The notes under the pieces were generated by a model. It made no database searches and was not told where the DNA came from. It saw only the letters and a program-made list of their open reading frames with translations. DNA of 64,000 bases from Bacteroidota bacterium. GTDB lineage: Bacteria; Bacteroidota; Bacteroidia; Bacteroidales; DTGW01. Positions 20,901-39,348 of this stretch are shown here, piece after piece; within the stretch, counting starts at the first letter, position 1; every line of letters begins with the position of its first letter. Location: the NCBI GenBank assembly GCA_029550865.1, contig JAKPGM010000038.1, positions 6,628 to 70,627 of the forward strand, in the 5' to 3' direction. Both the position numbers and the translations under genes were made by a program.

Positions 20901-22221
20901 GTTTACGAGCACTTTTGATTTTTTCGTAGTCGATACCATCGCGCAGTCCCAACTGTTTAATGGCATCATCATTTCCAGCACGAACAGCATCTTTTACCAG
21001 ATTGTAAAGGGTATTGGCTTCGTTGAAAGGAGTTTGAGCAGCATTGTTAATGCTCACTGCTGCTGGGTTACTCAGGTTCTGGGCTTCTATTTCGGCCAGG
21101 TCGGCAAAAGCGTATATAGCACGCACATTTTCGACATTTGCTTTATTGCGGTTGGTAACCCAAACTTCGATACGGGTAATGGTAATGTTGGAGGAGATGC
21201 GTGGTAAGTATTTGTGAGCGGCGTCGAATTGAGAGGCAAAAGTATGGGTAAGGAAGAAATGTTTATTTGCTTCGTATTCATCGGCATTGATTTCAAAAGG
21301 TGTTACCTGGGCACCTCCCTGTACTTGTATTACCTGTGTTTGTCCTCGCTGTTGAGAAAAAACAGTGGTCATGTTGAGCTTACCGAATTGTAGCTCAGTT
21401 TTTATACCAAAAAGGCTCTGGCTTCCGGTGATTAGTGTACCAGGAAGCGGGAGGGTTACATCACCGGCTTCAACTTTTTTCACGATGTCGTCTTCGTCAC
21501 CGTTGTATTCGAGCTTGGTTCGGTTTTCAAACTCAAACATAGCATCGGTATTGTAGCTTACACCCAGCTTGACCCGTTCTCCGATAGTTCCCGTTACGTT
21601 CATGTTGATTTTTTCATCGAAATCGAACGACCATACGGTACGCATGTTTTCCTGAATCTGAGGGTTGTTGGTAGTTGAGATGCTTCCCCCAAAGATTAGC
21701 TGGGCTTCTCCTTGCGGTATTATATTAATGGTGTTACCGCCAAACACTTTCTGGAATACCTCCCCTCCTATTGAGAATCCTTGAGAAAATCCGCGTGCGG
21801 TTGATTTTCCACCTGAGGCTTGCTGACGCCAGTATTCGCGTATTGTACGACGTAGCTCGTACTGTTGATACTCCTCCCGCGACATGGTAGCAGGTGGGCG
21901 ATAGTTGAGGTTGCCGATACGATTGGTGAAAATATATTGGTTTGTAGATGGGTCATATTGTACTTCCGAACGAACGTTGGAGGGACGTTTTAGTTGAATT
22001 CCTTCGGGTTCCTGTAAGTCGGCGGGGGGATAGGCTGGGTCATCCTTCAGACGGAACTGTGGACCTTCAGCTTTTACCGTAGTATCTTCGAGGATAGAAT
22101 CTTCCTCTGGAAGTCGTGGCTGTAGTCCACTGAAAAATGGGTAGGAGGCTTGTGTAGCAAGCCATACCGCGCCGCTGATAATAAAAATTGCTTTAAAAAA
22201 ATTTTTGTATGGTTGTGTCAT
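14914..22221 (-). CDS. sprA: T9SS outer-membrane translocon SprA/Sov
   Basis: 2435 aa with FEFENRTKLEYNGDEDDIVKKVEAG, GSQSLFGIKTELQFG and YIDDFEGS; next to ruvA. Confidence 0.95.
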   Translation of the reverse strand: MTQPYKNFFKAIFIISGAVWLATQASYPFFSGLQPRLPEEDSILEDTTVKAEGPQFRLKDDPAYPPADLQEPEGIQLKRPSNVRSEVQYDPSTNQYIFTNRIGNLNYRPPATMSREEYQQYELRRTIREYWRQQASGGKSTARGFSQGFSIGGEVFQKVFGGNTINIIPQGEAQLIFGGSISTTNNPQIQENMRTVWSFDFDEKINMNVTGTIGERVKLGVSYNTDAMFEFENRTKLEYNGDEDDIVKKVEAGDVTLPLPGTLITGSQSLFGIKTELQFGKLNMTTVFSQQRGQTQVIQVQGGAQVTPFEINADEYEANKHFFLTHTFASQFDAAHKYLPRISSNITITRIEVWVTNRNKANVENVRAIYAFADLAEIEAQNLSNPAAVSINNAAQTPFNEANTLYNLVKDAVRAGNDDAIKQLGLRDGIDYEKIKSARKLNDNEFSYDPNLGYISLNTALNNDEVLGVAFEYIYNGKTYKVGDLSTDITASKMPLVLKMLKGTNLSPNQKTWRLMMKNIYSLNAYDISSEDFYLDVLYRDDTKGSDVNYIPEKSGNINNIILLRLLNLDKINSQMESQPDGVFDFLDKITIDKRYGRIIFPMREPFGRYLDSVMERNGVTDPLVRKKYTYYELYDSTKTKAQLVSEKNKFKLKGTFKSASSSEIFLNASNIPQGSVKVSVGGIPLTENVDYVVDYAMGTVKIINSGVMSSGQPIKVSLESNTMFNIQTKTLIGTHLDYKISDDFNIGATILHLNERPLTNKVNIGDEPISNTIWGLNTTYRTRSQFLTTLVDKLPLLQTKEPSTITFTGEFAQLIPGSSKAIGKKGVAYIDDFEGSETKYDLKQFYGWSLSSTPARFPESVLSNDLRYNFNRAKLSWYIIDQSFYRNNSYTPAQVKQHKEWLQTNEAREVFESELFPNKQVPNGVSTNIYTLNLTYYPNIRGPYNFTTDLTPDGQLTNPETRWGGMMKALQTTDFEAANISYIEFWLMDPFIDDSANTGGELYFNLGDISEDILKDGQMSFEQGLPIPGDSTPIKTSVWGKIAQTDPLTQSFTNGVGLRKYQDLGLDGLNDEDEKSIYANFLNQVQSILNPEAYAKFEKDPAGDDFRYFRDPTYDATESNVNERYQDYNGVENNSPEAGSNTSSESNYSTPDMEDVNNDNTLSDKENYYEYRIDLRPNLKVGESFVVSERNTSVNVLGKKVNARWLQFKIPIENFDRKVGNIEDFKSIRFLRMYLTGFSKKTTLRFATLDLVRSEWRKYLGSLQQGSEGITDQGTASGFDIQAINIEENSNYVSPPGIQREADPSQPQLILQNEQSMVLKVSDLSDGDARAAFKTGKVDARQYKRLKMEVHCQPLDNLNPLNDGDVTVFIRLGSDNKNNYYEYEVPMKITRENDITDPKKIWPEENKFDIDLNLFQRIKQARNDANVSLQQVYHMKDGKNNVYICGNPSLSEIRVIMIGVRNPTSRNNPYPNDGLPKSAEVWVNELRLTDFSDKGGWAANARTQIKLADLGNIRVAGSTIQPGFGSLESKVNDREKAQTDQYDLSGDFELGKFFPTKAQVQIPLYMAYSQTTIKPQYNPLDPDIPLQAALDNAPNKRIRDSILRISIDRVLRRSINFTNVKVNKTSRTPKFYDPANFSVSYGYYEQLASNYKTEYNNLYHHEGSFNYIFNNRPKNIAPFQKINFFNKPYFRLIRDFNFYYAPTSVAFRTNITRDYHTLQLRNLAKNGLDIPLTIEKSFLWNRMYDVKYDLSRSIKIDFSATNYAYIDEWDRTMDSSLRTSPRYDKWRQIKNGGHNRRYTHQFNINYNIPINKLPLLDWTSASARYSGSYDWQLQPKFTDENGNYTDLGNSIGNTRSIQLTGNISLNTLYNKISFLRDIQQQGRQGGQQQKEKKTVTFDRRYFNLKAQTPRNISHNLKTQDVVVKVTDENGNEVKGTLEVPSINRVVFTPEKDVAVAYVRVEGKVDVGPNPFVWIVRNTARLLIGLKSVNGSYTETNGTSLSGYKRGTKFLGMSGAAPGIPFILGDQNDNNIRKMVENDWIVSNTLLQTNLLQTTTKTISFRANYEPFPGVRVELNTNYSRSINKNASYLPFRNDTNYLLHFAKPIVSGNFSMTIISLGSFENLNANNYNQSKYFSKFKENRYRIIARLQEKYANFPSYQNDPVTDPGFKENSQQVLIPAFLATYGGYDPNNFTLDLFPSLMYVRPNWRVNITSLTQIPLLAEYFQSINISHAYASTYNIGSYVTNSIYQEGPDGFSNIRDQLGNYAPMYDVSSITINEQFSPLFGVDVTLKNNLTARFEYKKSRTVMLGLTNYTLNENYATEYVFGSGYRFPDIPLTMITFGAVNSPVKSDLDLRADISIRDDLFFIRRLDISDQKVTNGNKNIKISFTADYQLSDRLTLQAFYDRLLTDPHISSSYKTINTKFGFSIRFTLTQ

Positions 22222-23378: not shown

Positions 23379-23410
23379 TTTGCAATTGAGGACTCCTGTA
23401 TATATTTTTG
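23379..23410 (+). promoter_or_regulatory. Bacteroidota primary-sigma promoter for susC
   Basis: TTTG (23379-82), 20-nt spacer, TATTTTTG (23403-10). Confidence 0.7.
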
Positions 23411-23466
23411 GTATCAAATTTTACAAACTAACATGCAACACACACAAACTAAAAAAACAGGAATCT

Positions 23467-26400
23467 ATGATGAGAAAAGCTACTTTACTACTGGTTTCCC
23501 TGTTGAGCTTTTCGGTGCTATTTGCGCAGGAAAAGACCATAACGGGGAAGGTCAATGATGAAACGGGTGCTGGTTTACCCGGCGCCACGGTGCAGCTCAA
23601 GGGTACGCAAACGGGTACTATGACTGATGTGAATGGTAATTTTACCCTAAAAGTGCCAAGTGGTGGCGGTACTTTAGTGGTATCGTATGTTGGGTATACT
23701 GCGCAGGAAATTGAGATTGGTGAAAACACAAATTTTGTAGTTGATCTGAAACCTGCGGTAACCCAATTGGAAGAGGCTGTGGTAATAGGTTATGGTATTC
23801 AGAAGAAAAGCCTGGTAACTGCAGCCATCACTAAAATTGATTCTAAGGACATTACCTCAGTACCTGTTGCACGTCTCGATCAGGCTATGCAGGGGAAAGC
23901 TGCAGGGGTATATATTGCACAGAGTTCAGGAGCTCCAGGAGGAAGCATGTCGGTAAAAATCCGTGGTAACGCTTCCGATGGTAGCAATGAGCCTATTTAT
24001 ATCGTCAATGGGGTGAAGGTCAGAAATATCGACTTTCTTTCGCCAGGTGATATTGAGTCGATAGAAGTTCTCAAGGATGCTGCTTCAGCTGCTATTTATG
24101 GTACCGAAGGGGGAAATGGCGTTGTGATTATTACCACCAAAAAGGCAGTTAAGGGTATCTCTCAGATTAATTACAATCATTACCATGGCTGGCAATCAGC
24201 AGCGCATGTGCTTAAGTCGATGAGTGCCGAACAGTACCTTACATACATGAAAGAGGCTTACAAAAACGAACTGGACAATGGCGTAATTACACAGAACGCT
24301 TACAACAATGCTATTGCAAAATATGACGCGATGGGTGCAGCTGGGACATCTACCAACTGGTTGGATGAAATTTTTGGAACTGCCCCTATGGATGAGCACA
24401 ATATTTCCTTCAACACGGGGACAGATAAATCAAATTATCTTTTAAGTGCTTCCTATCTAACGCAGGATGGTATTGTTGGTGGTGATAAAGCTAATTTTAC
24501 GCGTTATACCTTTACGTTGAATAATTCCAATCAAATTAAGGAGTGGTTAAATATTGAAACAAACATCACCTATTCTCGTTCTAAAAGAAATAATTTAAAC
24601 GAAAACTCAGATTTTGGCAATGGGATCATCAACTCTGCTTTATACTTCGATCCTACTATTCCTATTTACTATAAGGATGAAAACGAGTTGCCGGTGGGCT
24701 GGCGCCCCAATGATCCAGGTACCATTTATCCAGCACTGGTGAAAACAAAAGATGGAAAAATATTCCATAATTCAACCGAAACCATGGGCGATGTGGCTAA
24801 CCCGCTGGCTATTATTCACATGACACATAACACCACGCGTCGTGAAAATTTACTGGGAAATATAAAAACGGAAATTTCACTTCCTTTGAAGTTGAAATTT
24901 ACCAACCTGATAGGGCTCGATTACGGGCTGGTAAACGATGATGTATTTACCCCTATATACTTTTTCGATGCTACGAATTCACAGACCAACGACAGTCTTG
25001 CAAGTGTTTATAGTGCCTTCACAAAGTATTATAAATACAATTTTGATAACTACTTGACCTTTAACTTTAGTCTTTTCGATGCACTCAATGTTGATGGTCT
25101 GGTGGGGACTTCGTATGAAAATAGCTCGCCTTACTATCTTACTGCAACAGGGTATAAATTCCCTTATGGAAGTCCCGATTTTGCGTATTTGTATAACCAA
25201 CAGTCGGGGAGTACTCCGGTTATCTCAGGTGGATATGGGTCACCAGGTCATCCCGATTCAACCTTGCTGCTGGCTTCCTATTTTGGTCGATTATCGGCTA
25301 ATTATAAGGAAATTATTATGGGACAGTTCAACTTCCGTCGTGATGGTTCCTCTCTTTTCGGTCCCAATCATAAATTCGCCAATTTCCCATCCTTCTCCGT
25401 GGGTTTGAACTTTTACAAATTTTTGCAGGATAACATGCCTTTCCTGAGCAACGGGAAGTTACGCTACAGTTGGGGGAAAAATGGTAATCAACAAAACCTT
25501 GGCATGTGGGCTTATACGTCAACCATTCGTCAATTTTCTGCCTATACCGATGTAGCAGGCACCTCGTATCTTGGTGCTATTCCCACTCGACCTGCTAATC
25601 CTGATTTAGTATGGGAAACCAGCGTCCAGCATGATATCGGATTGGATTTAGGATTCTTGTCCAATCGTATTACATTTACGGTCGATTATTTTAACAAGAC
25701 AACGGTTGACCAGCTGAATGTTAAGGCTAAAGATCCTTATTATCACGGATTTCAGAGTTCGCCTATTGAAAATAACGGTAAAGTACTTAACCGAGGCTGG
25801 GAATTTGACTTAACCTATCGGGAAGCAGAGAAAGAATTCAAATATTCTATTTCGGCCAATGCCTCTTATTTATTCAATGAGGTGAAAGAATATGGTTCGG
25901 AATATAAAGATGGCTATCGTATGAATGTTGGCGACTTTGTAACCCGTTATCAGCCTGGTTATCCGGTATGGTACTTTATAGGTCTAAAGGCAGAAGGAAT
26001 TTTCCAGTCGGTTGACGAAATAAATAGTTATACCGGTCGCGACTCACAGGGTAACCAAATTCTGGACAAAAATGGCGATCCCGTAAAAATACAACCCAAA
26101 GCGATTCCGGGTGACGTAAAATATGCCGATTTGAATAAGAATGGGAAAATTGATGACGGCGATAGAACCATGATAGGTAAGCCACTGCCCGACTGGATGT
26201 TTGGCTTGAATCTCTCGTGCAACTATAAATGGTTCGACTTAAGCGTATTTTTCCAGGGCGTAACGGGCAATCAAATCTTTTTCTCGGCCATTCAAGTTAG
26301 CCGTCCGCAGTACAATAAGCCCGAATTTTACTTTACTGAACGTTGGACAGGGCCAGGTACTTCAAATAAGTTTCCTCGCGCCACCTATAAGGACAACAAT

Positions 26401-26688
26401 AATAACTTCAGGGCCAGTACGCTTAATATTCATGATGGGGATTATCTGCGTTTGAAAAATATAACCTTTGGCATCAGCCTACCAGAGTCGCTGGTAAAAA
26501 GGGTTGGTATTCAGAAGCTGCGTTTTTATGTAACAGCAACCAACCTGATAACCTGGACCAAATATAAAGGTAATGATCCAGAAGTTGGCCGACTGTTTGA
26601 TACCCAGAGCAACAACTCCTACGGCGTGGATAGAGGTTTGTATCCGCAACCACGGCTTATTACAACTGGTCTTAATCTTACTTTCTAA
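23467..26688 (+). CDS. SusC/RagA TonB-dependent transporter
   Basis: Signal peptide MMRKATLLL...FA-Q, carboxypeptidase-regulatory-like N-domain, plug motif IESIEVLKDAASAAIYG, WETS, and C-terminal YPQPR...GLNLTF. Confidence 0.96.
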   Translation: MMRKATLLLVSLLSFSVLFAQEKTITGKVNDETGAGLPGATVQLKGTQTGTMTDVNGNFTLKVPSGGGTLVVSYVGYTAQEIEIGENTNFVVDLKPAVTQLEEAVVIGYGIQKKSLVTAAITKIDSKDITSVPVARLDQAMQGKAAGVYIAQSSGAPGGSMSVKIRGNASDGSNEPIYIVNGVKVRNIDFLSPGDIESIEVLKDAASAAIYGTEGGNGVVIITTKKAVKGISQINYNHYHGWQSAAHVLKSMSAEQYLTYMKEAYKNELDNGVITQNAYNNAIAKYDAMGAAGTSTNWLDEIFGTAPMDEHNISFNTGTDKSNYLLSASYLTQDGIVGGDKANFTRYTFTLNNSNQIKEWLNIETNITYSRSKRNNLNENSDFGNGIINSALYFDPTIPIYYKDENELPVGWRPNDPGTIYPALVKTKDGKIFHNSTETMGDVANPLAIIHMTHNTTRRENLLGNIKTEISLPLKLKFTNLIGLDYGLVNDDVFTPIYFFDATNSQTNDSLASVYSAFTKYYKYNFDNYLTFNFSLFDALNVDGLVGTSYENSSPYYLTATGYKFPYGSPDFAYLYNQQSGSTPVISGGYGSPGHPDSTLLLASYFGRLSANYKEIIMGQFNFRRDGSSLFGPNHKFANFPSFSVGLNFYKFLQDNMPFLSNGKLRYSWGKNGNQQNLGMWAYTSTIRQFSAYTDVAGTSYLGAIPTRPANPDLVWETSVQHDIGLDLGFLSNRITFTVDYFNKTTVDQLNVKAKDPYYHGFQSSPIENNGKVLNRGWEFDLTYREAEKEFKYSISANASYLFNEVKEYGSEYKDGYRMNVGDFVTRYQPGYPVWYFIGLKAEGIFQSVDEINSYTGRDSQGNQILDKNGDPVKIQPKAIPGDVKYADLNKNGKIDDGDRTMIGKPLPDWMFGLNLSCNYKWFDLSVFFQGVTGNQIFFSAIQVSRPQYNKPEFYFTERWTGPGTSNKFPRATYKDNNNNFRASTLNIHDGDYLRLKNITFGISLPESLVKRVGIQKLRFYVTATNLITWTKYKGNDPEVGRLFDTQSNNSYGVDRGLYPQPRLITTGLNLTF

Positions 26689-26715
26689 TTTCAAAATTTT
26701 ATGATTATGGAAAAA

Positions 26716-28257
26716 ATGAAAAAAATAATACATCTGGCAGGCATAATATTATTGCTGCTACCTGCCTGTACGGAAAAAGATATTGAGGTAACTCCTACTA
26801 CCGAAATAGCAGATGCTTATTATCTTCAACCAGCAAATGTTTCAACTATTCTTGCTACTACGTATAACTTTTTGTGGGTACGTACGGGCCCCTGGGGTAA
26901 TTCCCATCGAGCCTGGGGTAATTTTCCTTCGGATGATGCCTATACGGGAGGATCTGATGATGGTGATCAACAGACCTATCAAGATGCTGATAAATATCAA
27001 GTAACGCCTTTGGATCCAGCAGCAAATCTAACCACTCAATGGCGTACTAATTTTCAGGGAATCTATGCCTGCAATTTGTTAATTGACAATGTTCCTGCAA
27101 CTTTGGATCAGAATTTGATGGCCATTGCCGAGGCAAAATTTTTAAAAGCTTTTTACTATTTCGAGTTAGCTCGAATGTTTGGCGGGTTACCCATCCTCAC
27201 AAAGACAGTTGCCCCTACCGAGATTATTCCACGTGCCACCTATGAAGAGACTTTGGAATACATTGCGCAACTTTTGCGTGAAGCCATTGCTACCAAGCGG
27301 CTTGATGGGGTTACCCCAGCCCTATTTCAGCGAACCAGCCCTTCGGGTCCTGATAATGGAAAGGTTACGCTGGCTGCTGCGCAGGCTCTTTTAGGAAAAG
27401 TTTACCTGTATCAGAAAAAATATTCCGAGTCTATCGACATTCTGTTGAAGGTTGACCAGAATCCTAATTATGCACTTGAAACCAATTATGCAGATATTTT
27501 TAATGCTACCAATAAATTTGGTAAGGAAAGCATATTTGAAGTAAGCTATGCAAAACCAAATGGGACAGATGGAAGAGCCATGGGGAATGGAGAATTACAA
27601 CTGTTTGGACCACGTCCAGCTACGCTTAGCCAGTTCGATGCCGATTTACTGGCAGGTTGGGGGTTTGATCAGCCCACCCAGAGCCTCGTAGATGCTTACA
27701 AGAGTCAGAACGACTATGTACGTTTAAACAAAACGGTTATTTCATCGGATAGCCTGCAGAAAATTTATACGGCTTATTCGGGAGATGCTACCCCCATTGT
27801 ATGGCAAAACTCTAAAGATGGTTACTGGGATGGGAAACATTTGCCTCGTAATAGTAACAGAGGTGCTGCCTGGGGTAATGATTACACCAACACCATCATT
27901 CTTCGTCTGGCTGATGTATATCTAATGCTGGCGGAGGCATATAACCGCACAGGTAATGATGCTAAAGCTCAGGAATACCTTAATAGAGTTCGTGCTCGTG
28001 TGGGATTGCCTCCAGTTACCGCAAGTGGCGATGCTCTTTACGAAGCAATTAAACTTGAACGTCGCCTTGAGCTAGCTCTTGAGGGTGAACGATATTTCGA
28101 CCTGCTTCGTTGGGGCGATGCAGAAAAATATCTGGGACCGCTGGGTTGGACTGACGGTACTCCTGGTAAAAAAACCAACGGTTGGTTCCCCATACCCCAG
28201 TCCGAAATCAATCGTACCGATGGTCCCAATAGGCTGGTACAAAATCCTGGATATTAG
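26716..28257 (+). CDS. SusD/RagB lipoprotein
   Basis: Lipobox LLPA-C, EAKFLKAFYYF, LRLADVYLMLAEA and ERRLELALEGERYFDLLRWG. Confidence 0.95.
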   Translation: MKKIIHLAGIILLLLPACTEKDIEVTPTTEIADAYYLQPANVSTILATTYNFLWVRTGPWGNSHRAWGNFPSDDAYTGGSDDGDQQTYQDADKYQVTPLDPAANLTTQWRTNFQGIYACNLLIDNVPATLDQNLMAIAEAKFLKAFYYFELARMFGGLPILTKTVAPTEIIPRATYEETLEYIAQLLREAIATKRLDGVTPALFQRTSPSGPDNGKVTLAAAQALLGKVYLYQKKYSESIDILLKVDQNPNYALETNYADIFNATNKFGKESIFEVSYAKPNGTDGRAMGNGELQLFGPRPATLSQFDADLLAGWGFDQPTQSLVDAYKSQNDYVRLNKTVISSDSLQKIYTAYSGDATPIVWQNSKDGYWDGKHLPRNSNRGAAWGNDYTNTIILRLADVYLMLAEAYNRTGNDAKAQEYLNRVRARVGLPPVTASGDALYEAIKLERRLELALEGERYFDLLRWGDAEKYLGPLGWTDGTPGKKTNGWFPIPQSEINRTDGPNRLVQNPGY

Positions 28258-28268
28258 TATGTTATTCT

Positions 28269-28296
28269 ACTTTGCCGGGCAATTCCCCGGCAAAGT
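28269..28296 (+). other. 11-bp GC-rich hairpin after susD without a U-tract (3' stabiliser or weak terminator)
   Basis: ACTTTGCCGGG-caattc-CCCGGCAAAGT. Confidence 0.6.
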
Positions 28297-28396
28297 TCAA
28301 AAAAATGTTAATTCATTGTTTGGTTTTTTGAAAAATATTATATCTTTGTGATACCATAATCAATACCTTTTAGTATTAACTTAAAACTTACAACTT

Positions 28397-29281
28397 ATGA
28401 AAAAGGCAATGTTTACTCTTGTGGCAGCTGCTGCTATTATGTTATGCGGCACTAATTATGTTAAGGCTCTTAATGAAATTACAATTGAGCCTGTGACAGG
28501 CATCACTATTGATGGTGATCTTTCCGATTGGCCTGAAGCCATACCTTGGGTAACAGCGGATTCTTTAAAGGGTACGAATACTACCAACAAGATGAAATTT
28601 AAAATGGGTTATGATGACAAGTTTATTTATGTTGGTGTGAATGTTGAAGATTCTCAGATGGATACCACTCAAAGTCCTAATGCATGGGAAAAAGACTGTA
28701 TTGAATTGTTTTTTGTTTTTAATGACACCATAGCTGATGACAAAAAAGTGAGCTACAGTAATGGTCAATTGGGTGCTTGGCAATTGCGTAAAGTTTGGGG
28801 TCGGGACATGACAGATTTTCCAGGTAAAGGATTTGAAGCTGCTGAAATGGATATTCCTGGAGGTTTCGCTCAAGAATGGAAACTTCCAATTGATACTCTT
28901 GCATCTACAGGACATTTTACAACGAAAACAAAATTCCGTTTTGAAATTCAAAACGGCGATAATGACGGAGAAGGACGTAACGGTCAACTTTTTTGGAATT
29001 CTGCTGCTGATGATCAATGGAATACAATTTTACATCAAGGTGTAGTTAAATTTAAATGGCCTTTGGCTGTAAAACAGGCTATCGCCAAAGCTTCCTCGAT
29101 CCGTATCAAAGCTAATAGCATTGAATTTGCTAAAACAGCTAAGGAAGTTAACGTTTACAGCATCACCGGCCAGCTTATGCTTAAGGCTCGTAACGTAAAC
29201 GCTATCAGCACAAGCGCTCTGAAGAGTGGTGTATACTTTGTTGTTGCTGACGGCGAAAAAGCTAAATTCGTGATTAAATAA
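28397..29281 (+). CDS. Secreted CBM9-like (DOMON-fold) sugar-binding protein with T9SS type A CTD
   Basis: Signal peptide; ITIDGDLSDW, YDDKFIYVGVNVED and DCIELF; CTD VYSITGQL...LKSGVYFV...KFVIK. Own TATCTTTG box at 28341-28348. Confidence 0.85.
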   Translation: MKKAMFTLVAAAAIMLCGTNYVKALNEITIEPVTGITIDGDLSDWPEAIPWVTADSLKGTNTTNKMKFKMGYDDKFIYVGVNVEDSQMDTTQSPNAWEKDCIELFFVFNDTIADDKKVSYSNGQLGAWQLRKVWGRDMTDFPGKGFEAAEMDIPGGFAQEWKLPIDTLASTGHFTTKTKFRFEIQNGDNDGEGRNGQLFWNSAADDQWNTILHQGVVKFKWPLAVKQAIAKASSIRIKANSIEFAKTAKEVNVYSITGQLMLKARNVNAISTSALKSGVYFVVADGEKAKFVIK

Positions 29282-29303
29282 GCTGTCTGTCTCTTCAATA
29301 TCT

Positions 29304-29337
29304 AAAGGGCATCCAATAAAGGATGCCCTTTGTTTTT
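29304..29337 (+). terminator. Intrinsic terminator
   Basis: AAAGGGCATCC-aataaa-GGATGCCCTTT-GTTTTT. Confidence 0.9.
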
Positions 29338-29484
29338 ATATACAATAGCTAAACAGAAATAGTCATATTACTTTTAAAACGGGATAGTGCTGGTACCGTA
29401 GACTTTATTGTTAAAAAAATAAAAAACAAATTTCATTTTGGCAGGTATTTTGTAACATTGCCCCGTTTAATGAATTTTAAACAA

Positions 29485-30516
29485 ATGAAAGGTACACCTT
29501 TACTTAGCCTTTTGATTTTAATAGAAATTTTCGGGGTAAATCATTTAAATGCTCAGGATTTTTCGAATGTTGATACTTCGATTACTCCTTCTGTCGTATA
29601 AACATTACCTGAATACGATAATTTGTACTGGGTTAATGATACAGTGGCCTATCATTATCGACCCACCCGAAAATTTGGATTTATCCACAATGCCGTTGAT
29701 AATTTTTTGCATCAGCCCAAAGAATTGGTTCGTCGGGAGAACTTGAAAATTTTAACACTGGTGGCAGTAACCAGTGCAATATGTTTTTATTACGATCAGG
29801 AGATAGTGGATGCAGCGCAACAGTTTGGTCGATACATTGGATTATCAGGAGAAAACAATACCTATAATATTACGGGCACTAAGAAATTGCGTATCAATGT
29901 GCCTACTGACTTAAGCTCGGGACTGTATTACATTGGGGATGGTATTACCGAGTTGGCGGTTAATGCGGGATTTTATATTTATGGTATAGCTAAGGACGAT
30001 AAGCGGGCACTTCAGACTGCAGCCCAGCTGGCAGAAGGCATGATAGCTGTGGGCTCGTGGGTACAGATCCTTAAGCATCTTACTGGGCACGAATCGCCCG
30101 AATATGCTTCGGTTCCTGGAGGACGTTGGCGTTTTTTCCCAAGCCCCATCGATTATCATAAAACCGTCCCTAAGTACGATGCGTTTCCATCGGGTCACCT
30201 GGCTACGGCGATGATGACTACCACAGTAATTTCTATGAACTATCCCGAATACCGATGGATTAAGCCCTTATGTTTTACCCTGATGGGTTTGTGTGGGTAT
30301 CAAATGCTCAATAATGGGGTACACTGGATGGGCGATTATCCCTTTGCGCTGGCTTTAGGTTATTCGGTGGGCAAGTATGCATTTGAACGTGGACGTGTGG
30401 TTGTTTATAAGAATCAACTATCTTCTTCCACTATACAACCTTCCTTTGAGTACCGTGTGCATCCCGTATACATGGGTTTTGGGACATCAGGCCTGGCTCT
30501 CACAGTATCCTTTTAG
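29485..30516 (+). pseudogene. PAP2-family phosphatase interrupted by an in-frame TAA (29599-29601)
   Basis: The ATG at 29485 gives the signal peptide MKGTPLLSLLILIEIFGVNHLNA-QDF..., then VV*TLPEYDNLYWV in frame with ORF 29623-30516. PAP2 motifs FPSGH and HWMGD are present. Confidence 0.75.
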
Positions 30517-30702
30517 CAGGTAGGGTAAAAAATAAGTGTTTTTACACAACTTACTTTGTGTACTTTAACCACACAAAATAGGGGATTTTCTTCTTATTTT
30601 CCGTGAAAATGCCAAAGTTTTGTGCACATGGTTGACCCTAAATTTGTAATGTAAATTAATACAGTCACCATGCGCACATTCATACAATTTACGTCGCGGA
30701 AT

Positions 30703-31191
30703 ATGGCAAAAAGCTCAAATTATTATCTTGCTTTTGAGCTTAAAGGTAATTTGTTTGCAGCCAACTTCCCACGTATTTATGGTTTCACCCGTGAATATAC
30801 ATATCTGTCGTTAACTAATTTCTCTGAAAATGTTCCTGGAATAGCACTGGTACATACTGAATATATACCTGTTCTTGATTTATGGAAGAAAATTGGATAT
30901 AGCGAAAAAACATATACAGGCACTGAAAAACTTATGATTCTTGAAGCCGAGGTTTATGATACCAAATTACGTTTTGCTATTCCATACGATCAGCTTGGGG
31001 ATGCATTTGAGCTTTCTGCAAAAAAAATGATGCCTGCTCCTTCTGTTGGCTCAATTTTTGAAAAAGGATATATCAAAGGCATGTATATGCACCAAGAGGA
31101 CGTAATTTATATTATTAATTTCGAAAAACTCATAGATATTGATGATTTAATTGACATTAAAATAGCTCCTAACCGTCTGGTTGCAAGGTAG
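30703..31191 (+). CDS. Divergent CheW-like protein
   Basis: YLAFEL...FA...GI...IPVLDL...FAI...IKG...IINFEKLI pattern. Alternative start at 30670; TAAATTTG box at 30639-30646. Confidence 0.75.
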   Translation: MAKSSNYYLAFELKGNLFAANFPRIYGFTREYTYLSLTNFSENVPGIALVHTEYIPVLDLWKKIGYSEKTYTGTEKLMILEAEVYDTKLRFAIPYDQLGDAFELSAKKMMPAPSVGSIFEKGYIKGMYMHQEDVIYIINFEKLIDIDDLIDIKIAPNRLVAR

Positions 31192-31272
31192 TGTAAGTTT
31201 TTTCATAGGTTAGTTTTAAGTTAATAATTAGGTTAGTTGTGTAGCCTTACCCCACAGGGGTAAGGTTTTTTT
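31192..31272 (+). ncRNA. Candidate 3'-UTR-derived antisense sRNA
   Basis: 31198-31226 is complementary to 28374-28405 (start region of the CBM9 gene); the segment ends in a terminator. Confidence 0.45.
31243..31272 (+). terminator. Intrinsic terminator of the cheW-like gene
   Basis: AGCCTTACCCC-aca-GGGGTAAGGTT-TTTTT; the U-tract is on the + strand only. Confidence 0.9.
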
Positions 31273-31347
31273 ATTCGTGGTATCCCAAAAAGGCAAGTTT
31301 TTTTATATATTTACAGAACATTAAACTATGCAAAAAGCTACTGAGGT

Positions 31348-34300
31348 ATGACCGATGGTATTCCCGCGAGGGACAAACAGGAATTGACTACATTTAATAA
31401 ATTCTTCACCTCATTGTTTGATTCATTGAGTCATGGTTTTATTGTTGTAAAAGATGGACTAATTGTATTTGCCAACTACGCTTTTTTACGGATGACGGGT
31501 TACGATAGGGAAGAATTAATAAACGTTCCATTGCTTAACCTATGCCCGCATAAACAATCCAATGGAAAGCTTTCTCAATCGTTATTGGAAACTACCATAA
31601 ATGCTTCGGTATACGAACGAAAAGAATTAAATAATTGGAGATTTTTAGTTCGCACCCAGAAATCGTTGCGATGTCATATAATGGTAACGACCATTTTCCT
31701 TGAGCAGCAGGATTACGTGGTTTTAGAAGTTGAAGAAATAATTGCTCAACGGGATATAGCGCAGCGTTTGAAAGAAAAAAATAAGCAAATCGAATCCCTG
31801 AGTGAGGAGCGAGAAAGTCTTAATGAAGAACTTCGTGCCACCCTCGACGAATTGGTTGAGGTTAACAAACAGCTCGCCGATAGTGAATTTTGGAACAAAA
31901 CCATTGTCGAAAATATTCCATTGGGGCTGCAGGTAATTAATAACGGCGAAACCGAGTACATCAATGGTAAAATGCTCGAAATTACTAATTATCCTGCCAA
32001 CTATTTTCAGAACAGGTCGATATTTGATTTAGCAGATGAGGATGAAAGAACGCGGGTTGGAGCTTTTCTCGAACATGTCAGGCAGGATATGTTGAACGAG
32101 GCAATGTTAGAATTCTGGGCACGAACTTCCCAGCACGAGCGTCGATATTTACGTGCACAATATGTAAGGCTTAATAAGGCAAGTCGATGGATGGTTATAA
32201 CGGCCGACCTGACAGAGAATAAGCTGAAAGAAAATGAACTACTGACCATCCAACAGCAGCTTGAGTTTGCCATAGAATCGAGCCAGTCGCTTATCTGGGA
32301 CATTAATCTGGCTGCTCCCGACGATGAGCCAGGTATTAGTATTGGACGTATATTTGACTACCAGCCAGGGGAACTAAAAATTCGAAACAATATCTGGCAA
32401 GAAATCATCCATCCCGACGACTTTGCGCTCGTTTCCTCAGAACTCGAAAAGCACTATCGAGGCGAGACCTCTTTATTTGAGGTTGAATCGCGAGTTATAA
32501 CAAAAGCTGGCAATTATAAATGGGCACTTATTCGGGGAAAAATTATTTCAACATTTTTCCCGGAACCCTCTCGACACTTTTTTGGAATGCTGGTAGATAT
32601 TTCGAAACGAAAAGAAACGGAAGAACAGCTGGTTGTGTCGGAAGAGAAGTTTCGTACTATTGTCCAGCATTTGTCCGACCTTATATTGATAGTCAATAAA
32701 AATCTTACCATTATTTATGAATCGCCGTCGGTTTCTGCAACATTTGGTTACGAACCGGGTCATTTGATAGGGAAAAGTGCCCTTGAAATATTACATCCAG
32801 CCGATGTGGAGGTGGCTTTGAAAGAGTTTGAAAATGTGCTGAAAAAGGATAATGACTTTAAACCCACAGAACTTCGGGCACGTCATGCTAAGGGATATTG
32901 GGTATATCTTGAGGTACTTGGCGACGATTTATCCGAACATCCTGCCATTGGGGGTATCCTCATCACTGCTCGTGATATTTCTGAGCGTAAGGAAAATGAA
33001 ATGCAGCTCGACCTGTATCGTAACCACCTTGAGCAACTGGTTAAAAAACGAACCGAAGAGATAGAACTTATCAACGCCGAACTGGTAGCTATTAACGAAG
33101 AACTCAAAGCCACCAATGAAGAACTGGCTGTAAAAAATGAAAAACTCAATGATGAAATCCTGAAACGAATTGAGGCGCAGCTTGCCCTGGAAGAAAGCGA
33201 AAACAAATTCCGCAGCTTTATTGAACAATCCACCGAGGGGATTGTACTCATTGACGAGGAGGGTAAAATAGTCGATTGGAATAAGGGCATGGAATCGATT
33301 TTTAAAATTCCTCGGGAGGAAGTTATTAATACCTATGTATGGGAATTTGATTATCGTTTTTTACCCGATAAGCGAAAAACGCAAAAGCAATTCGAAGAGC
33401 TTAAAGCTTCGACCATTGAATATTTTAATTCCCTCGATCATTCGAAAATAATGACCGTTGAGGGATATTTTCAAACCATAGAGCTAAAACAAAAATACCT
33501 TACTGTTACTATTTTTCCGGTAATTACCCCTAAGCGTCGTTATTTGGGACGTATTGTTAGGGACATTACAAATATTAAAAAAGCACAGGAAGAGATACAA
33601 AAGCAGAGTGAAGAACTGCAACAGATAAACGAAAATCTTGAACAACAAAAGCGTGAACTTGAGAATGCTCTGGAAGAACTTCGCAAAACGCAGGCACAAC
33701 TGATCCATTCCGAAAAAATGGCCTCGCTGGGTGTTTTGACAGCAGGTGTTGCTCATGAGATTAATAATCCTGTCAATTACATCAACACAGCACTTGAAGG
33801 CTTAAAGATTACCCTCGCCGATTTTCTGGAGATATTCTACATGTACGAAACCATCACGCCTGAAAATGTTACGGCCAAGCTCGAGGAGATTAAACGGCTC
33901 AAAGCTCAACTCGATTTTCCAACACTTCAACAGGGGATTAACGTTTTGCTCAATAATATGCAAACGGGTATTGAACGGATTACCGAAATAGTAAAAAGTT
34001 TAAGAACTTTTGCACGCGTTGAAGAAAATGAACTTAAATTTACGAATGTACACGAGCTTATCGATACTACGCTGGTTATGTTGCATAATCAGTACAAAAA
34101 TCGCATTGAGATTGTAAAGGAATATGGTTTTGTGCATTCTATCAACTGTTATCCAGGAAAATTGAGTCAGGTATTCATGAATATACTATCGAATGCTATT
34201 CAGGCTATTCCCGACAAGGGCACCATTACGATTAATACCCATACCGACAACGATGGAAAATATATGTATATTTCCATAAAAGATACGGGTGTGGGTATAC

Positions 34301-34485
34301 CTGAGCAGATCAGGGAAAAAATCTTCGAACCATTTTTCACAACAAAAGAGGCAGGTAAAGGTACGGGGCTGGGGCTCTCCATTACGTATGGTATCATTCA
34401 ACAGCACAATGGAGAAATAAAAGTAAATAGTAAGGTTGGTGAAGGAACAGAATTTATTATAAAATTGCCAACAAACCTAAAATAA
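31348..34485 (+). CDS. Soluble multi-PAS histidine kinase (NtrB-like HisKA)
   Basis: About five PAS/PAC domains separated by coiled coils; [21 protein letters not shown]; FEPFFTTK...GTGLGL; no TM helix seen. Confidence 0.93.
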
Positions 34486-34506
34486 TAACCCTAAGAACCT
34501 AAGATT

Positions 34507-36087
34507 ATGGAAGAGTCATACAAAGAGCCGATTCTGTATGTAGATGATGAAGTTGAAAATCTTCAGGGCTTTGAATTTTTGCTACAGCGTGACTTTGAAG
34601 TGCATGTAGCCGCTTCAGCACGAGAGGGCTTGGAAATTTTACAGCATAACACCATAAAGGTGGTGCTGACCGACCAGCGCATGCCCGAAATGACCGGGAT
34701 AGAGTTTCTGGAAAAAGCGATGACGATATCGCCCGAAACCATTCGCATTGTTGTAACGGCCTACAGCGATTCCGATACAATACTACAGGCCATAAATCAA
34801 GGCAAAGCGTATCATTTTATTACCAAACCCTGGAACAATAACGAGCTGCGAAATATTATTCGTCGAGCCATTGAAACCTATAATCTACGTAAGGATAAAT
34901 TACAGTTGATAAATCATTTACAAAACCTCAATGCCGAATTGCTTAAGGCAAAAGAGCGTGCCGAGGAAAGCGATAAGTTGAAAACATCTTTCCTGGCCAA
35001 CATGAGCCACGAAATTCGAACGCCGTTGAATGCCATTGTTGGCTTTTCCAATCTACTTATTGATGACAACCTTAAAAATCCAGAATTAAAAAAAGAATTT
35101 GTAAAGATTATTGAACATAGTGCAGGAGATTTGCTCAACATCATTGAGGATATTCTGGATACAGCCCAGATAGAATCGGGCATTGTCAATATCCGAGAAA
35201 ACCTTGTAGACATTAATCAGTTGATGGTTGAACTACTAATAATGTACCAAAACCATCCACAGGTGAAAGAAAAACAATTGCAGGTAGAATACATTTATCC
35301 GGCTGCTACGGACAAGTTTGATGTTTATTTAGATAGGCTGCGATTAAAACAAATACTTACCAACCTGCTTAGTAATGCAGTAAAATTTACCGAGCATGGG
35401 AGAATAGAATTTGGTTACCGTCAACTGGAACATGCACAGAATGTATTACAATTTTTCGTAAGCGATACAGGTATCGGTATCCCTTCAGATAAGTTTGATT
35501 TTATTTTTGAACGTTTTCGGAAACTCGAAACGGATACCGATACGTTATACAGGGGGAATGGTCTTGGGCTATACATTTCGCGTAAGTTAGCCCAATTTAT
35601 GGGGGGAGATATCAGTCTGGAGTCGGAGGTAGGCAAAGGATCGACTTTTTATCTTACCATACCTTATTCTATTCGACAGCGTGAAGGATTAGGCGAGAAT
35701 TATACTTCATATTATGCCAATCTTACCTGGCCAGGTAAAACCATTCTTATTGTCGAAGACGAGACTTCAAATTATAAATACCTTGAAGCCCTGCTCAATA
35801 ATCGGGCAAATTTGCTTTGGGCGAAAAATGGTATTGAAGCGGTGCAAATATGTACCGAAAAACCGGTAGATTTAGTTTTAATGGATATTAAACTGCCGAA
35901 ACTCGATGGATTTGAGGCAACGCGTAAGATAAAAGATCTAAAGCCAAGCCTTCCGGTTATTGCTGTCACAGCATATGCCATGGAGGCTGATAAAAACGAA
36001 AGCATACAGGCGGGATGTAATAATTACATTTCAAAGCCCTTTAAAATGGAAGAATTATTCTCATTGATCAATTCTTACATCGGATAA
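34507..36087 (+). CDS. Hybrid kinase REC-HisKA-HATPase-REC
   Basis: ILYVDDE...DQRMP...TKPW; FLANMSHEIRTP; second receiver domain IVEDE...MDIKLP...SKP. Confidence 0.94.
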   Translation: MEESYKEPILYVDDEVENLQGFEFLLQRDFEVHVAASAREGLEILQHNTIKVVLTDQRMPEMTGIEFLEKAMTISPETIRIVVTAYSDSDTILQAINQGKAYHFITKPWNNNELRNIIRRAIETYNLRKDKLQLINHLQNLNAELLKAKERAEESDKLKTSFLANMSHEIRTPLNAIVGFSNLLIDDNLKNPELKKEFVKIIEHSAGDLLNIIEDILDTAQIESGIVNIRENLVDINQLMVELLIMYQNHPQVKEKQLQVEYIYPAATDKFDVYLDRLRLKQILTNLLSNAVKFTEHGRIEFGYRQLEHAQNVLQFFVSDTGIGIPSDKFDFIFERFRKLETDTDTLYRGNGLGLYISRKLAQFMGGDISLESEVGKGSTFYLTIPYSIRQREGLGENYTSYYANLTWPGKTILIVEDETSNYKYLEALLNNRANLLWAKNGIEAVQICTEKPVDLVLMDIKLPKLDGFEATRKIKDLKPSLPVIAVTAYAMEADKNESIQAGCNNYISKPFKMEELFSLINSYIG

Positions 36088-36090
36088 GGA

Positions 36091-39000
36091 ATGCTGGATA
36101 AGTCAGAGAAAACCATACTATATGTTGATGACGAGCAGGAAAACCTCGATGGTTTTCGCTTTAATTTTCGAAAAGACTATGTGATTTATACAGCACAAAA
36201 CACCCTTGAAGCCTTTAATATTATACGAAATGCACCCATAAAGGTAGTTATTTCGGACAATAAGATGCCCGATATGCTGGGCACCGAGTTTTTTGAGGTG
36301 CTTGCTGTCTCAAATCCTGACATTATTCGTATATTGGTTACTGCCTATGCCGATACCGAAGCAGCCATGCAGGCCATCAACAAAGGGCAGGTTTATCGAT
36401 TTATCACCAAACCCTGGAATAAGAACGAACTGCAGAACGCTATTGAAAATGCTTTTGAGGCCTATCAGCTTAAGCAGCAAAATCAACAACTCATTGAAAA
36501 TCTCACAAAGAAAAATTTTGAGCTGGAAGATTTGAGCTTTCGGCTAATGGTGGAAGTATCGGAGCATAGAAAAGTAGAAGAAGAACTGTTCGTTTACAAA
36601 AATCATCTGGAGCAATTAGTTGCCAAACGAACGGAAGAAATTGAACAGATTAACAAAGAATTAAGCCGATACAAGGACGAACTGGAGGAACTTGTTAAGG
36701 AACGTTCTGCTCAACTGATTGAGAGTGAACAACGTCTTAGAACCATAAGCGATAATCTTCCAGGAGGCGCTATTTTTAGAGGTTTCACCAAGCCCGATGA
36801 TACCGATTATTTGGTGTATACCAGTGCCAATATACATGCTATCACGGGGATTACTCGGGACGACATGCTGTCGAGCATTGGTATTTTTTTTAATCAGGTG
36901 TACCCCGACGATATTCCTCGTCTTATTGCTGCTCGTAAAAAAGCCATTGAAGATTCAAAAATTCTTGACGTAGAAATTCGTTTCTATCGAGCCCCCGATG
37001 ATATTCGCTGGCTACATTTGCGAATAATGTATAAAAATACTGAGGACGGTCTTATTTGGTGGGATGGGTATGTCATCGACGTAACCGATCGAAAAAGGGC
37101 AGAGCATGCGGCGAAAAGTCTTGAAAATATTATCAATCAAATCCATGAAGGGATATCGGCACATACCGGCGAAAAACTCATTGAAACGGTGGCAATGAAA
37201 CTTTTCGAGGTATTACAACCCGACCAACTTTTTATTGGGCAGCCCCTTACAGGACGACAAGCAATTCGAACTACGATTTTTATTGAGCACAACAACATTA
37301 AGAAAAACATCACCTTTTCTGCCAAGAATACTCCGTGCAGTTTAGTATTGAAAAAGGATAAAATAATATATTCCAGTGGTGTTCATGAACATTTTTCAGG
37401 CCTTGATACCCTGACTCATTCAAAAGCGGAAGCGTATGTAGGTATACCACTCATCAATTCATCTGGTAATTGCATTGGTTTAATTGCTGCTATATATTTT
37501 CGTCCGCTCGGGGAAGGGCAGCGAGTAGCCCAAATTCTCGAAATTTTTTCGGCTCGTATTACAGCTGAGTTGGAACGCATACAGTACGAGGAAGCCATTA
37601 AGCTTTACTCTGATGTTGCCGAAAATATGCAGGTGGCTCTGAATGTTTTTCAACTTCAGGGCAAAAATCTTATCCTGGTAAAAGCAAATCCTGCAGCGGC
37701 AAGAATTATCAATGCTACCCTTGAGGGCATGGTCGGCAAAAAGTTTGAAGAGATATATCCCCAGCTACAGGGATATCAGCTCGAAGAGGTACTGACCCGG
37801 GTGGTACGCACAGGTAAAGCCTATGCAAATGAAGAATTTAAATATTTTGCCGACGACGGTAAGGTATTTTTTTACAGCTTTAAGGCATTTCCTCTGCCTA
37901 ATAATTGTGTCGGAGTATTGTTCGAAGATATAACCCGCAAAAAACTTGCTGAACAGGCTATTAAGGAAAATGAAGAACGTTACAAGGCACTTTTCGAAAA
38001 ATCCCCCAACGGAATTCACCTCATCAGTACTTCAGGTGCTATGGCCGGCAAAATCGTATCGGTCAACCCCCTGGTTACCCGGATGCTTGGGTACACCGCT
38101 AATGATATTGTGGGTCAACCCTTAGAACACTTCATGGTTGGGCTCGATTCAGATTTTCGAAAACAGACTCTGGAAAAACTTATGGCTGGCCAAACGGTTA
38201 TTTTCGAAACAACTTTTATCCGCAAAGATGGTAATCGTTTTCCGGTAGAAATTACACAAAGTACCTTGAGTCTTGGTAATGAGATTTATATCCTTGGCAT
38301 CGTTCGTGACATTACTGAGCTAAAAAACGCTCAAAAACAATTGCAGGAAAATATCCATTTTCTTACTACACTGTTAGAAACCATACCATTACCGGTGGTT
38401 TACAAAGATAAAAATCGCAGATTTTTGGGATGCAATACCGAATTTGAACAGCTTATCGGACGAAAGCGAGAAGAGCTGATGGGCAAAACGGTATTTGATA
38501 TTTATCCATACGAGTTTGCGAAACGATACGATGAAGCCGACAGGCTGTTGCTTGAAAATGGGGTAACCCAGAAATTCGAAGAACAGATTGTAGATGCAAA
38601 AGGAAATGTTCGAGACATTATTCTAACAAAAGCTGCTTTTACTGATGTCAACAACGAAATCGCCGGCTTTATTCTGATTCTTTTCGATATTACCGAACGG
38701 AAAAATTATGAGATTCGATTGCTGGAAACCATTATTACTACCGAAGAAAAGGAACGAGAACGTTTTGCGGGCAATTTGCACGACGAAGTAGGCCCTTTAC
38801 TCTCAAGTCTGAAAATGTATCTATCTCTACTGGCCGAAAGCGAGGACAAAAAAAAGAAAGATTACATTTTGAAGCAGGTTCAACATCTGATTAAAGAAGC
38901 CATACAAACGGTACGTGAGATCTCAAACGATTTGAGTCCTCATATCCTAAACAATTACGGTTGTATCGCAGCTATCAACTCTTATATAGCCCTTAAATCG

Positions 39001-39348
39001 GATTTTATTAAAATCGATTTTCAGCAAAATATTGAAAATAAAAGATTTGGTGCACATCTCGAGACTATCATCTATCGGATTACCAAGGAGCTTATCAACA
39101 ACACCCTTAAACATGCTGAGGCTAACCATATCGAACTAAAAATCATTGAAAATAATAACGTCCTGAGCTATTATTATCGCGATGATGGGAAAGGTTTTGA
39201 GATGAAAGATACCCTGGAGACCAAGAGCGGCAGCATTGGATTGCTAAACATTGTAAGCCGTGTTAAAACTATCAATGGAAAATATCATATCGATAGCGCA
39301 CCTAACAAAGGTTTTACTTTTGAACTCGAAGTTCCATTAAAAAATTAA
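36091..39348 (+). CDS. REC-PAS-GAF-PAS-PAS-PAS kinase of NarX/HisKA_3 type
   Basis: N-terminal receiver domain; GAF (TPC...AYVGIPL); ERERFAGNLHDEVG; ELINNTLKHA; DDGKGF. Confidence 0.92.
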   Translation: MLDKSEKTILYVDDEQENLDGFRFNFRKDYVIYTAQNTLEAFNIIRNAPIKVVISDNKMPDMLGTEFFEVLAVSNPDIIRILVTAYADTEAAMQAINKGQVYRFITKPWNKNELQNAIENAFEAYQLKQQNQQLIENLTKKNFELEDLSFRLMVEVSEHRKVEEELFVYKNHLEQLVAKRTEEIEQINKELSRYKDELEELVKERSAQLIESEQRLRTISDNLPGGAIFRGFTKPDDTDYLVYTSANIHAITGITRDDMLSSIGIFFNQVYPDDIPRLIAARKKAIEDSKILDVEIRFYRAPDDIRWLHLRIMYKNTEDGLIWWDGYVIDVTDRKRAEHAAKSLENIINQIHEGISAHTGEKLIETVAMKLFEVLQPDQLFIGQPLTGRQAIRTTIFIEHNNIKKNITFSAKNTPCSLVLKKDKIIYSSGVHEHFSGLDTLTHSKAEAYVGIPLINSSGNCIGLIAAIYFRPLGEGQRVAQILEIFSARITAELERIQYEEAIKLYSDVAENMQVALNVFQLQGKNLILVKANPAAARIINATLEGMVGKKFEEIYPQLQGYQLEEVLTRVVRTGKAYANEEFKYFADDGKVFFYSFKAFPLPNNCVGVLFEDITRKKLAEQAIKENEERYKALFEKSPNGIHLISTSGAMAGKIVSVNPLVTRMLGYTANDIVGQPLEHFMVGLDSDFRKQTLEKLMAGQTVIFETTFIRKDGNRFPVEITQSTLSLGNEIYILGIVRDITELKNAQKQLQENIHFLTTLLETIPLPVVYKDKNRRFLGCNTEFEQLIGRKREELMGKTVFDIYPYEFAKRYDEADRLLLENGVTQKFEEQIVDAKGNVRDIILTKAAFTDVNNEIAGFILILFDITERKNYEIRLLETIITTEEKERERFAGNLHDEVGPLLSSLKMYLSLLAESEDKKKKDYILKQVQHLIKEAIQTVREISNDLSPHILNNYGCIAAINSYIALKSDFIKIDFQQNIENKRFGAHLETIIYRITKELINNTLKHAEANHIELKIIENNNVLSYYYRDDGKGFEMKDTLETKSGSIGLLNIVSRVKTINGKYHIDSAPNKGFTFELEVPLKN

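Follow-up and report, generated by a model that had tools for sequence, protein, structure and literature searches.

The described RNAs that most resemble the element treated here are the FopS RNAs of Bacteroides thetaiotaomicron; the element itself occupies the 3' untranslated region (3' UTR) of a cheW-like gene within a 64,000-nt stretch of DNA, hereafter the window, from an uncultured Bacteroidales lineage (relatives of the cheW-like protein are found in records titled 'MAG: Bacteroidales bacterium'). In their 2025 description, the FopS RNAs comprise 14 small regulatory RNAs (sRNAs) of about 65–70 nt, made of a single-stranded 5' seed (R1') and a terminator, which pair beside a start codon, either that of susC or that of the gene leading a polysaccharide utilization locus operon (PMC11697453). 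The same source reports that they block translation in vitro, as verified by compensatory mutants, that they are antagonised by the RRM-1 protein RbpB, that one member, FopS-14, is derived from a 3' UTR, and that the family is conserved within the Bacteroidaceae (PMC11697453). GibS, also from B. thetaiotaomicron, resembles the element in pairing through an R1-type seed with translation initiation regions, but differs from it in its length of about 145 nt, its second seed (R2) and its non-canonical promoter (PMC7366714, PMC11697453). More remote is Rfp18 of Flavobacterium psychrophilum, predicted and in part shown to control several secreted-protein mRNAs; unlike the element it is a structured RNA that pairs through a stem-loop and affects metalloprotease mRNA levels (PMC9723704). 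We report here that the ~84 nt following the stop codon of the cheW-like gene (31192–31275) probably constitute a trans-acting sRNA module, a relative, though divergent, of the Bacteroides FopS/GibS-R1 family, which would repress translation starts, among them that of a neighbouring gene for a CBM9 protein carrying a type IX secretion system (T9SS) sorting domain.

A preliminary description of the locus had proposed that the 3' UTR of the cheW-like gene is antisense to the translation start of this CBM9/T9SS gene, and the sequence strings on which this rested were all recovered at their positions. Nucleotides 28374–28388 are the exact reverse complement of 31212–31226 (15 nt). After a 3-nt bulge (TAC, 28389–28391), the segment 28392–28405 pairs with 31198–31211 through 12 Watson-Crick and two G-U pairs, and with the ATG at 28397 the paired site covers positions -23 to +9. 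The sequence TAGGTTAGTT is present twice in the UTR, at 31206–31215 and at 31229–31238. The element as a whole is enclosed by the stop codon of the cheW-like gene (31189–31191) and by a terminator hairpin (31243–31267) followed by a T run.

The 15-mer is found at these two places only in the window's own genome (G000, a 2.5-Mb assembly, 83.7% complete), and it is the window's one exact inverted repeat of at least 15 nt within 5 kb. Because 62 such repeats exist genome-wide, or about 1.6 per 64 kb, the exact match alone is not significant, and it was rejected as evidence by itself. The extended duplex was evaluated with RNAduplex, which ignores accessibility, by pairing the RNA 31192–31243 with 1905 start regions of the genome (-40 to +21; a crude caller supplied open reading frames (ORFs) of 90 aa or more, each taken from its first ATG). 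The CBM9 start site gave -33.8 kcal/mol and ranked third of the 1905. Dinucleotide shuffles of the RNA (37 in total) served as the energy null: the best energy per shuffle ranged from -26.1 to -33.2 kcal/mol, so that none of the 37 reached -33.8, and start regions at -32 or better numbered five for the real RNA versus at most two in any shuffle. Unlike the 15-mer alone, the full duplex stands out beyond chance.

The five best start regions span -39.4 to -32.6 kcal/mol, and the next one reaches only -29.0 (Table 1). As for the FopS RNAs, pairing is thus predicted at translation initiation regions, with five outliers among the 1905. Four of the five encode T9SS tails and three encode CBM9 domains, out of six CBM9 genes in the genome; the remaining three (C12:14598–15863, C14 and C69), ranked 386, 554 and 893, were discarded as targets. 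Overall, the set of start regions includes 51 T9SS-tail genes, of which four are in the top five and seven in the top 25, against 0–1 and 0–3, respectively, in the 16 shuffles used as a null for the target class. A canonical FopS seed taken from another genome produced no outlier in G000 (best energy, -25.8 kcal/mol), whereas the genome's own seed does. The sequences suggest that seeds and leaders diverged together between lineages. The second-best target of this seed, itself carried on a cheW-like mRNA, is a gene for a methyl-accepting chemotaxis protein (MCP; C64:9248–10693), whose leader contains a block, AACTACTAACTAAAA..CCTATGA, without variation among the three species of the genus compared (G000 and two others, G001 and G002). 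The link from the signalling locus to surface glycan binding that the preliminary description had drawn is hypothetical.

The preliminary description had seen in the element a riboregulator that blocks initiation on mRNAs of MKK-type secreted proteins, including an M14 peptidase encoded further downstream. The general proposal gains support in silico from conservation, from the FopS architecture and seed, and from the shuffle null; the M14 peptidase is lost as a specific target. The match exists, in that AGTTTTTTCAT (31196–31206) is complementary to ATGAAAAAACT at 41713–41723, but the start region ranks 28th with -25.6 kcal/mol, which is within the null range. It is a generic match, because ATGAAAAAACT opens eight of the 1905 start regions (this 11-mer has 20 occurrences in the genome). 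The susC gene of the window (start near 23467) was also considered and rejected as a target, at rank 186 of 1905. Nor is any special meaning of the 2.8-kb proximity of the two complementary segments supported: unlinked genes on other contigs pair equally well or better, and in a member of another genus of the same family (G007) the homologues of the two arms lie on different contigs, proximity not being conserved beyond the genus.

The stretch that opens with the cheW stop codon and closes with the T run has 81 invariant positions out of 86 across G000, G001 and G002; among the last 39 coding positions of the cheW-like gene, 20 are invariant in the same three species. The gene order is kept in G001 and G002, and the loci are 74–78% identical overall. 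Conservation begins exactly at the cheW stop codon, and a conserved stretch is also present past the terminator, before the kinase gene. The stem of the terminator is kept in both species, and its loop varies. On the side of the targets, four genera have homologues that conserve the CBM9 leader TATTAACTTAAAACTTA...ATGAAAAA upstream, and the leaders of the C12 and MCP targets are conserved blocks in G001 and G002. The cheW-like gene of G007 carries a diverged version of the UTR and terminator. The complementarity itself was recovered in the relatives: paired with the CBM9 leader of its own genome, the cheW UTR gave -28.5 kcal/mol in G001, -33.4 in G002 and -24.6 in G007, and in each case none of 200 shuffles did as well. 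A second FopS-like copy of G007 (C8) was no better than shuffles as a partner of the CBM9 leader (18 of 200 as good). A small minus-strand ORF starting from 31206 (MKKLTL...) was set aside, being conserved for six codons only in G001 and G002.

In the centroid fold, 31192–31242 is unpaired and is followed by the 11-bp terminator hairpin and a U run; this 5' part (~31192–31242) is predicted to carry the anti-start seed, 31196–31240. A permissive Rfam scan over 28200–31450 gave as its best match 31191–31275 (+ strand), aligned to positions 1–71 of the 71 of model RF04319 (FopS sRNAs, Bacteroides thetaiotaomicron) with a score of 28.1 bits (E 0.016, 251 nt versus all families). When this family alone was searched against the whole of G000, the element in the cheW UTR was the top match (E 0.038), and the other matches scored at most 21 bits; one match, C18:70863–70916, was rejected as merely the antisense of a start region that is itself in the top 25. 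The preliminary description had missed this kinship to a described family, which lowers the novelty of the element.

The likeness to FopS extends to several features. The blocks GUG, UUUUUCAU, UUAG, UUUAAG and UUAAUAA are common to the element and RF04319, arranged in an unpaired 5' seed as GUG...UUUUUCAU, UUAG.UUUAAG.UUAAUAA with the Rho-independent terminator directly after. The predicted pairing runs across the start codon and the A-rich leader of mRNAs for envelope or secreted proteins, related genomes contain paralogous copies, and RRM-1 proteins are encoded in the genome (in G000, two small RRM_1 proteins whose open frames measure 90 and 106 aa). Unlike FopS, the element has five extra nucleotides inserted behind GUG and a linker longer by 12 nt, measures ~84 nt versus 65–70 nt, and lacks a canonical promoter of its own. 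In this genome, which is 84% complete, a single full copy and a partial one were found versus 12–15 in Bacteroides, and the top predicted targets are T9SS CBM9, GDSL/T9SS and MCP genes rather than susC. By the Rfam threshold the element is a distant FopS relative, not a member sensu stricto.

Intermediates exist between the two. Of 151 Bacteroidales genomes, 22 had RF04319 matches over the cut-off, and the weaker matches form a continuum from 55 to 28 bits whose sequences bridge canonical FopS to the element (for example L060, L054 and L058). In the window's family, further FopS-like copies were found in G001, G002, G006, G007 and G008 (at E up to 0.5, three matches in G001, two in G002 and two in G007). 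A stop codon immediately precedes two of the family copies, the rest being intergenic. Copies L068 (G001:C2:310975–311051, -) and L073 (G002:C41:11303–11393, +) begin at most a few bases away from the stop codon of the gene upstream, which is a 439-aa ORF for the first and codes for an AraC-type regulator for the second; hence the 3'-UTR placement is not unique to cheW. The partial copy of G000 (C5:17244–17305) consists of TTAGTTTTGGGTTAATAATTGGTTAG and a terminator, without the anti-AUG part, and is located directly past the stop codon of a gene whose C-terminus resembles, by eye, a LuxR/GerE-type helix-turn-helix. The strongest pairing predicted for it is with the C13:121–1848 start region, an outlier at -33.2 kcal/mol.

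The -7 promoter box of Bacteroidota has the consensus TAnnTTTG. From the PAP2 gene to the element, the sole such box is that at 30639, immediately upstream of cheW, and the motif scan found no further one from 30647 to 31191. Because this sole box is upstream of cheW and conservation starts at the stop codon, the element looks 3'-UTR-borne, like FopS-14, rather than independently transcribed. The 3'-UTR-derived sRNAs CpxQ and SdhX of Proteobacteria also have their seed between the stop codon and the mRNA's own terminator, a placement that couples the output of the regulator to transcription of the parent gene, and the element, situated between the stop codon and terminator of its parent with no promoter box of its own, is alike in this. 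It differs from CpxQ and SdhX in phylum and in the chaperone system (Hfq, RNase E in their case), and has no sequence relationship with them.

In the mechanism that we propose, cheW and the element would be co-transcribed, starting at the promoter near 30639, and the RNA would either be released from the 3' end of the cheW mRNA or be active as part of it. Its unpaired, U/G-rich 5' part would pair with the A-rich, Shine-Dalgarno-less leader and the start codon of a few mRNAs, and pairing would block ribosome loading, by analogy with FopS-10 acting on susC BT_3983. The predicted target set comprises three of the six CBM9 genes, all T9SS, together with a GDSL/T9SS esterase and an MCP. One may speculate that a small RRM-type protein modulates the element, as RbpB does in B. 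thetaiotaomicron. The existence of a discrete RNA species, its expression and processing, its binding and the repression that it would exert are all predictions.

The observations at this locus concern its sequence, its conservation, its fold, the resemblance to a family and a target signal that exceeds the null; against the reading that they support, several points have to be set. The 28.1 bits obtained with RF04319 are half of the curated gathering score of 56 bits, below the threshold of the family, and at E up to 10 the model also matches eight of 14 control genomes, archaea included. A weak score alone is no proof, because a terminator and a U-rich sequence can yield weak matches. No compensatory change between UTR and leader was found in the relatives compared; the substitution in the G001 leader merely weakens the pairing (-28.5 versus -33.8 kcal/mol), and both UTR and leader are too conserved for covariation to be judged. 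Among the predictions, susC is not at the top, the best-ranked ORF of more than 900 aa being 41st of 1905, and the CBM9 paralogues may share their leaders by descent, hence not be independent targets. The start regions came from a crude caller, RNAduplex is blind to accessibility, and the shuffle null is small (n=37). Finally, the four public runs compared (three metatranscriptomes and one DNA run, from activated sludge and anaerobic digester samples) are assembled contigs without transcript boundaries, and no metatranscriptome contig spans the whole UTR; one of them (X20 record 11) runs from cheW to 31220.

In the same runs, the contigs of the CBM9 gene (28200–29300) had a word depth of 281–586 in the three metatranscriptomes, with 15–93 on the susD side and 2–5 for cheW, but contig depth cannot rank genes and an abundant CBM9 mRNA is a hint only. 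A second contig shares 28381–28420, that is the leader and first codons, and then diverges, so that another gene in those communities carries the same leader.

Among the other explanations, it is unlikely that the 3' UTR acts purely in cis, for termination, stability or translation of the cheW mRNA, with the complementarity as a by-product of composition. U/G-rich shuffles do reach -26 to -33 kcal/mol against the A-rich leaders, and the discrete small RNA remains a prediction; nevertheless, the real sequence beats 37 of 37 shuffles, its target set is functionally coherent and is not picked by shuffles, and its seed blocks are common with FopS.

Several T9SS-cargo genes have the motif TTAAC(T)TAAAACT...ATGAAAAA upstream, its conservation extends across genera, and a conserved stretch is also present past the terminator ahead of the kinase gene. 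The motif could then be a shared cis-element at the DNA level, serving as operator or promoter-proximal site to a DNA-binding protein that regulates T9SS-cargo genes; the copy downstream of cheW would be the same site reversed and would control, for example, the PAS kinase gene at 31348. This we consider quite unlikely: the register of the motif relative to the start codon is constant and the motif takes in the ATG and first codons, which fits a role in RNA or translation, the cheW copy is upstream of a + strand terminator, and both mismatches of the window duplex are G-U compatible. The likeness is, moreover, to sRNAs shown to act by base pairing (PMC11697453).

A chance inverted repeat without function is disfavoured and appears very unlikely. 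It agrees with the 62 comparable repeats of the genome and with arm proximity not being kept beyond the genus, but it leaves aside that both arms are conserved blocks in related species, that the extended duplex exceeds all 37 shuffles, and that paralogous genes and further T9SS genes have equally good sites.

Invertible regions are a known trait of Bacteroidales, and in the invertible promoters and shufflon-type inversions of Bacteroides short inverted repeats flank DNA beside surface-protein genes. In line with this, a perfect 15-bp inverted repeat flanks three genes here, and the preliminary description had offered as an alternative that the arms are recombination sites of a 2.85-kb invertible segment, uncoupling the CBM9 gene from its promoter. 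That proposal is highly improbable, as none of the 35 window ORFs is a recombinase in the Pfam scan, the orientation is the same in G001 and in two collinear G002 contigs, contigs of the DNA run (X4 records 12 and 18) cross, in the reference orientation, the left arm (28286–28520) and the right arm (30872–31400) and a 5569-nt contig of an RNA run crosses the left arm (X18 record 1), no strand-changing joint was reported in the four runs (contigs can hide rare variants), and the 'repeat' is shared with unlinked loci, all of which sets the locus apart from invertible promoters and leaves the repeats to be explained by sRNA-target complementarity.

Repeats of other kinds were seen elsewhere in G000. 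A multi-copy element with GGATGGAACTCGCATGT and ATGAAACGAGCATGTA is present on contigs C18, C29, C35, C43, C51, C60, C65 and C76, as long inverted-repeat pairs (up to 42 nt exact, 2–4.4 kb apart) that are often located towards a contig end; an insertion sequence is one possible identity, some other mobile or invertible element a second. Palindromic repeats of type CCCCTCTCCTTTGAAAGGAGAGGGG occur at several loci, on contigs C42, C51, C69 and C70.

The features of the locus and the predicted targets are collected in Table 1. The CBM9 gene is directly behind the susC/susD pair, and sprA lies 6 kb upstream of it. Just past the susD stop codon, 28253–28312 contains a 30-nt imperfect palindrome (77% complementary), which is probably a terminator between the susC/susD unit and the CBM9 gene. 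If the TATCTTTG box at 28341–28348 is the promoter, as its sequence would allow, the target site is inside the transcribed CBM9 leader. In the CBM9 protein, the Por_Secre_tail domain scored 25.1 bits (2.2e-5), slightly below the Pfam cut-off of 27. The 951-aa ORF at 55457–58312 (-) matched no Pfam family at E up to 1e-5.

Table 1. Features of the window around the cheW-like gene, and start regions predicted to pair best with the RNA element.
Feature	Position	Strand	Remarks
sprA, T9SS translocon gene	14914–22221	-	2435-aa SprA homologue, Pfam SprA_N 7e-190
susC	23380–26688		
susD	26701–28257		
TATCTTTG, putative -7 box	28341–28348	+	fits TAnnTTTG; ~50 nt upstream of CBM9 ATG; read from sequence
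Predicted target site	28374–28405	+	5' UTR and first three codons of CBM9/T9SS mRNA; -23 to +9
CBM9 domain protein with T9SS C-terminal sorting domain	28397–29281	+	294 aa; Pfam CBM9_1 1.1e-13
Terminator-like hairpin	29303–29332	+	closes CBM9 transcription unit
PAP2 phosphatase	29623–30516		
TAAATTTG, -7-type box	30639–30646	+	24 nt upstream of cheW-like ATG; from its sequence, likely promoter of the mRNA carrying the element
cheW-like gene	30670–31191	+	173 aa; Pfam CheW 8.3e-10; host mRNA of the element
FopS-like RNA element	31192–31275	+	3' UTR of cheW-like gene; conservation, RF04319 match, fold
Intrinsic terminator	31243–31274	+	11-bp stem with six G-C pairs, 3-nt loop, T run
Three PAS or hybrid histidine kinases	31348–39348		
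Usp and RadA genes			with the M14 peptidase gene
M14 peptidase with T9SS tail	41713–43347		
Predicted target, rank 1	C12:12504–14135		CBM9, fn3, T9SS tail; -39.4 kcal/mol
Predicted target, rank 2	C64:9248–10693		HAMP, MCP signalling; -34.8 kcal/mol
Predicted target, rank 3	window CBM9 gene		CBM9, T9SS tail; -33.8 kcal/mol
Predicted target, rank 4	C44:6258–7724		GDSL esterase, T9SS tail; -33.6 kcal/mol
Predicted target, rank 5	C63:1120–2091		CBM9, T9SS tail; -32.6 kcal/mol

Among the literature results inspected on T9SS and sRNAs, only the Rfp18 work dealt with sRNA control of secreted-protein genes in a bacterium, and no paper was found on sRNA pairing at the translation starts of T9SS cargo; the supplement of PMC11697453 may already show wider homologues or targets other than SusC. 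The sequences compared suggest that the FopS family reaches well beyond the Bacteroidaceae, with lineage-specific seeds, and that T9SS cargo can take the place of SusC transporters in its target repertoire. For annotation, an anti-start-codon seed followed by a terminator in a Bacteroidales 3' UTR is likely to be a regulator, not an inversion site. We put forward more tentatively, as a possibility, that FopS-type riboregulation is order-wide, seeds and target leaders co-diverging, and that at this locus a seed on the mRNA of a CheW-like coupling protein sets the translation of T9SS CBM9 glycan-binding proteins and of a chemoreceptor. If this is true, FopS-type control would not be a speciality of gut Bacteroides aimed at SusC transporters, and a chemosensory-type module would here be wired directly to the secreted surface repertoire.

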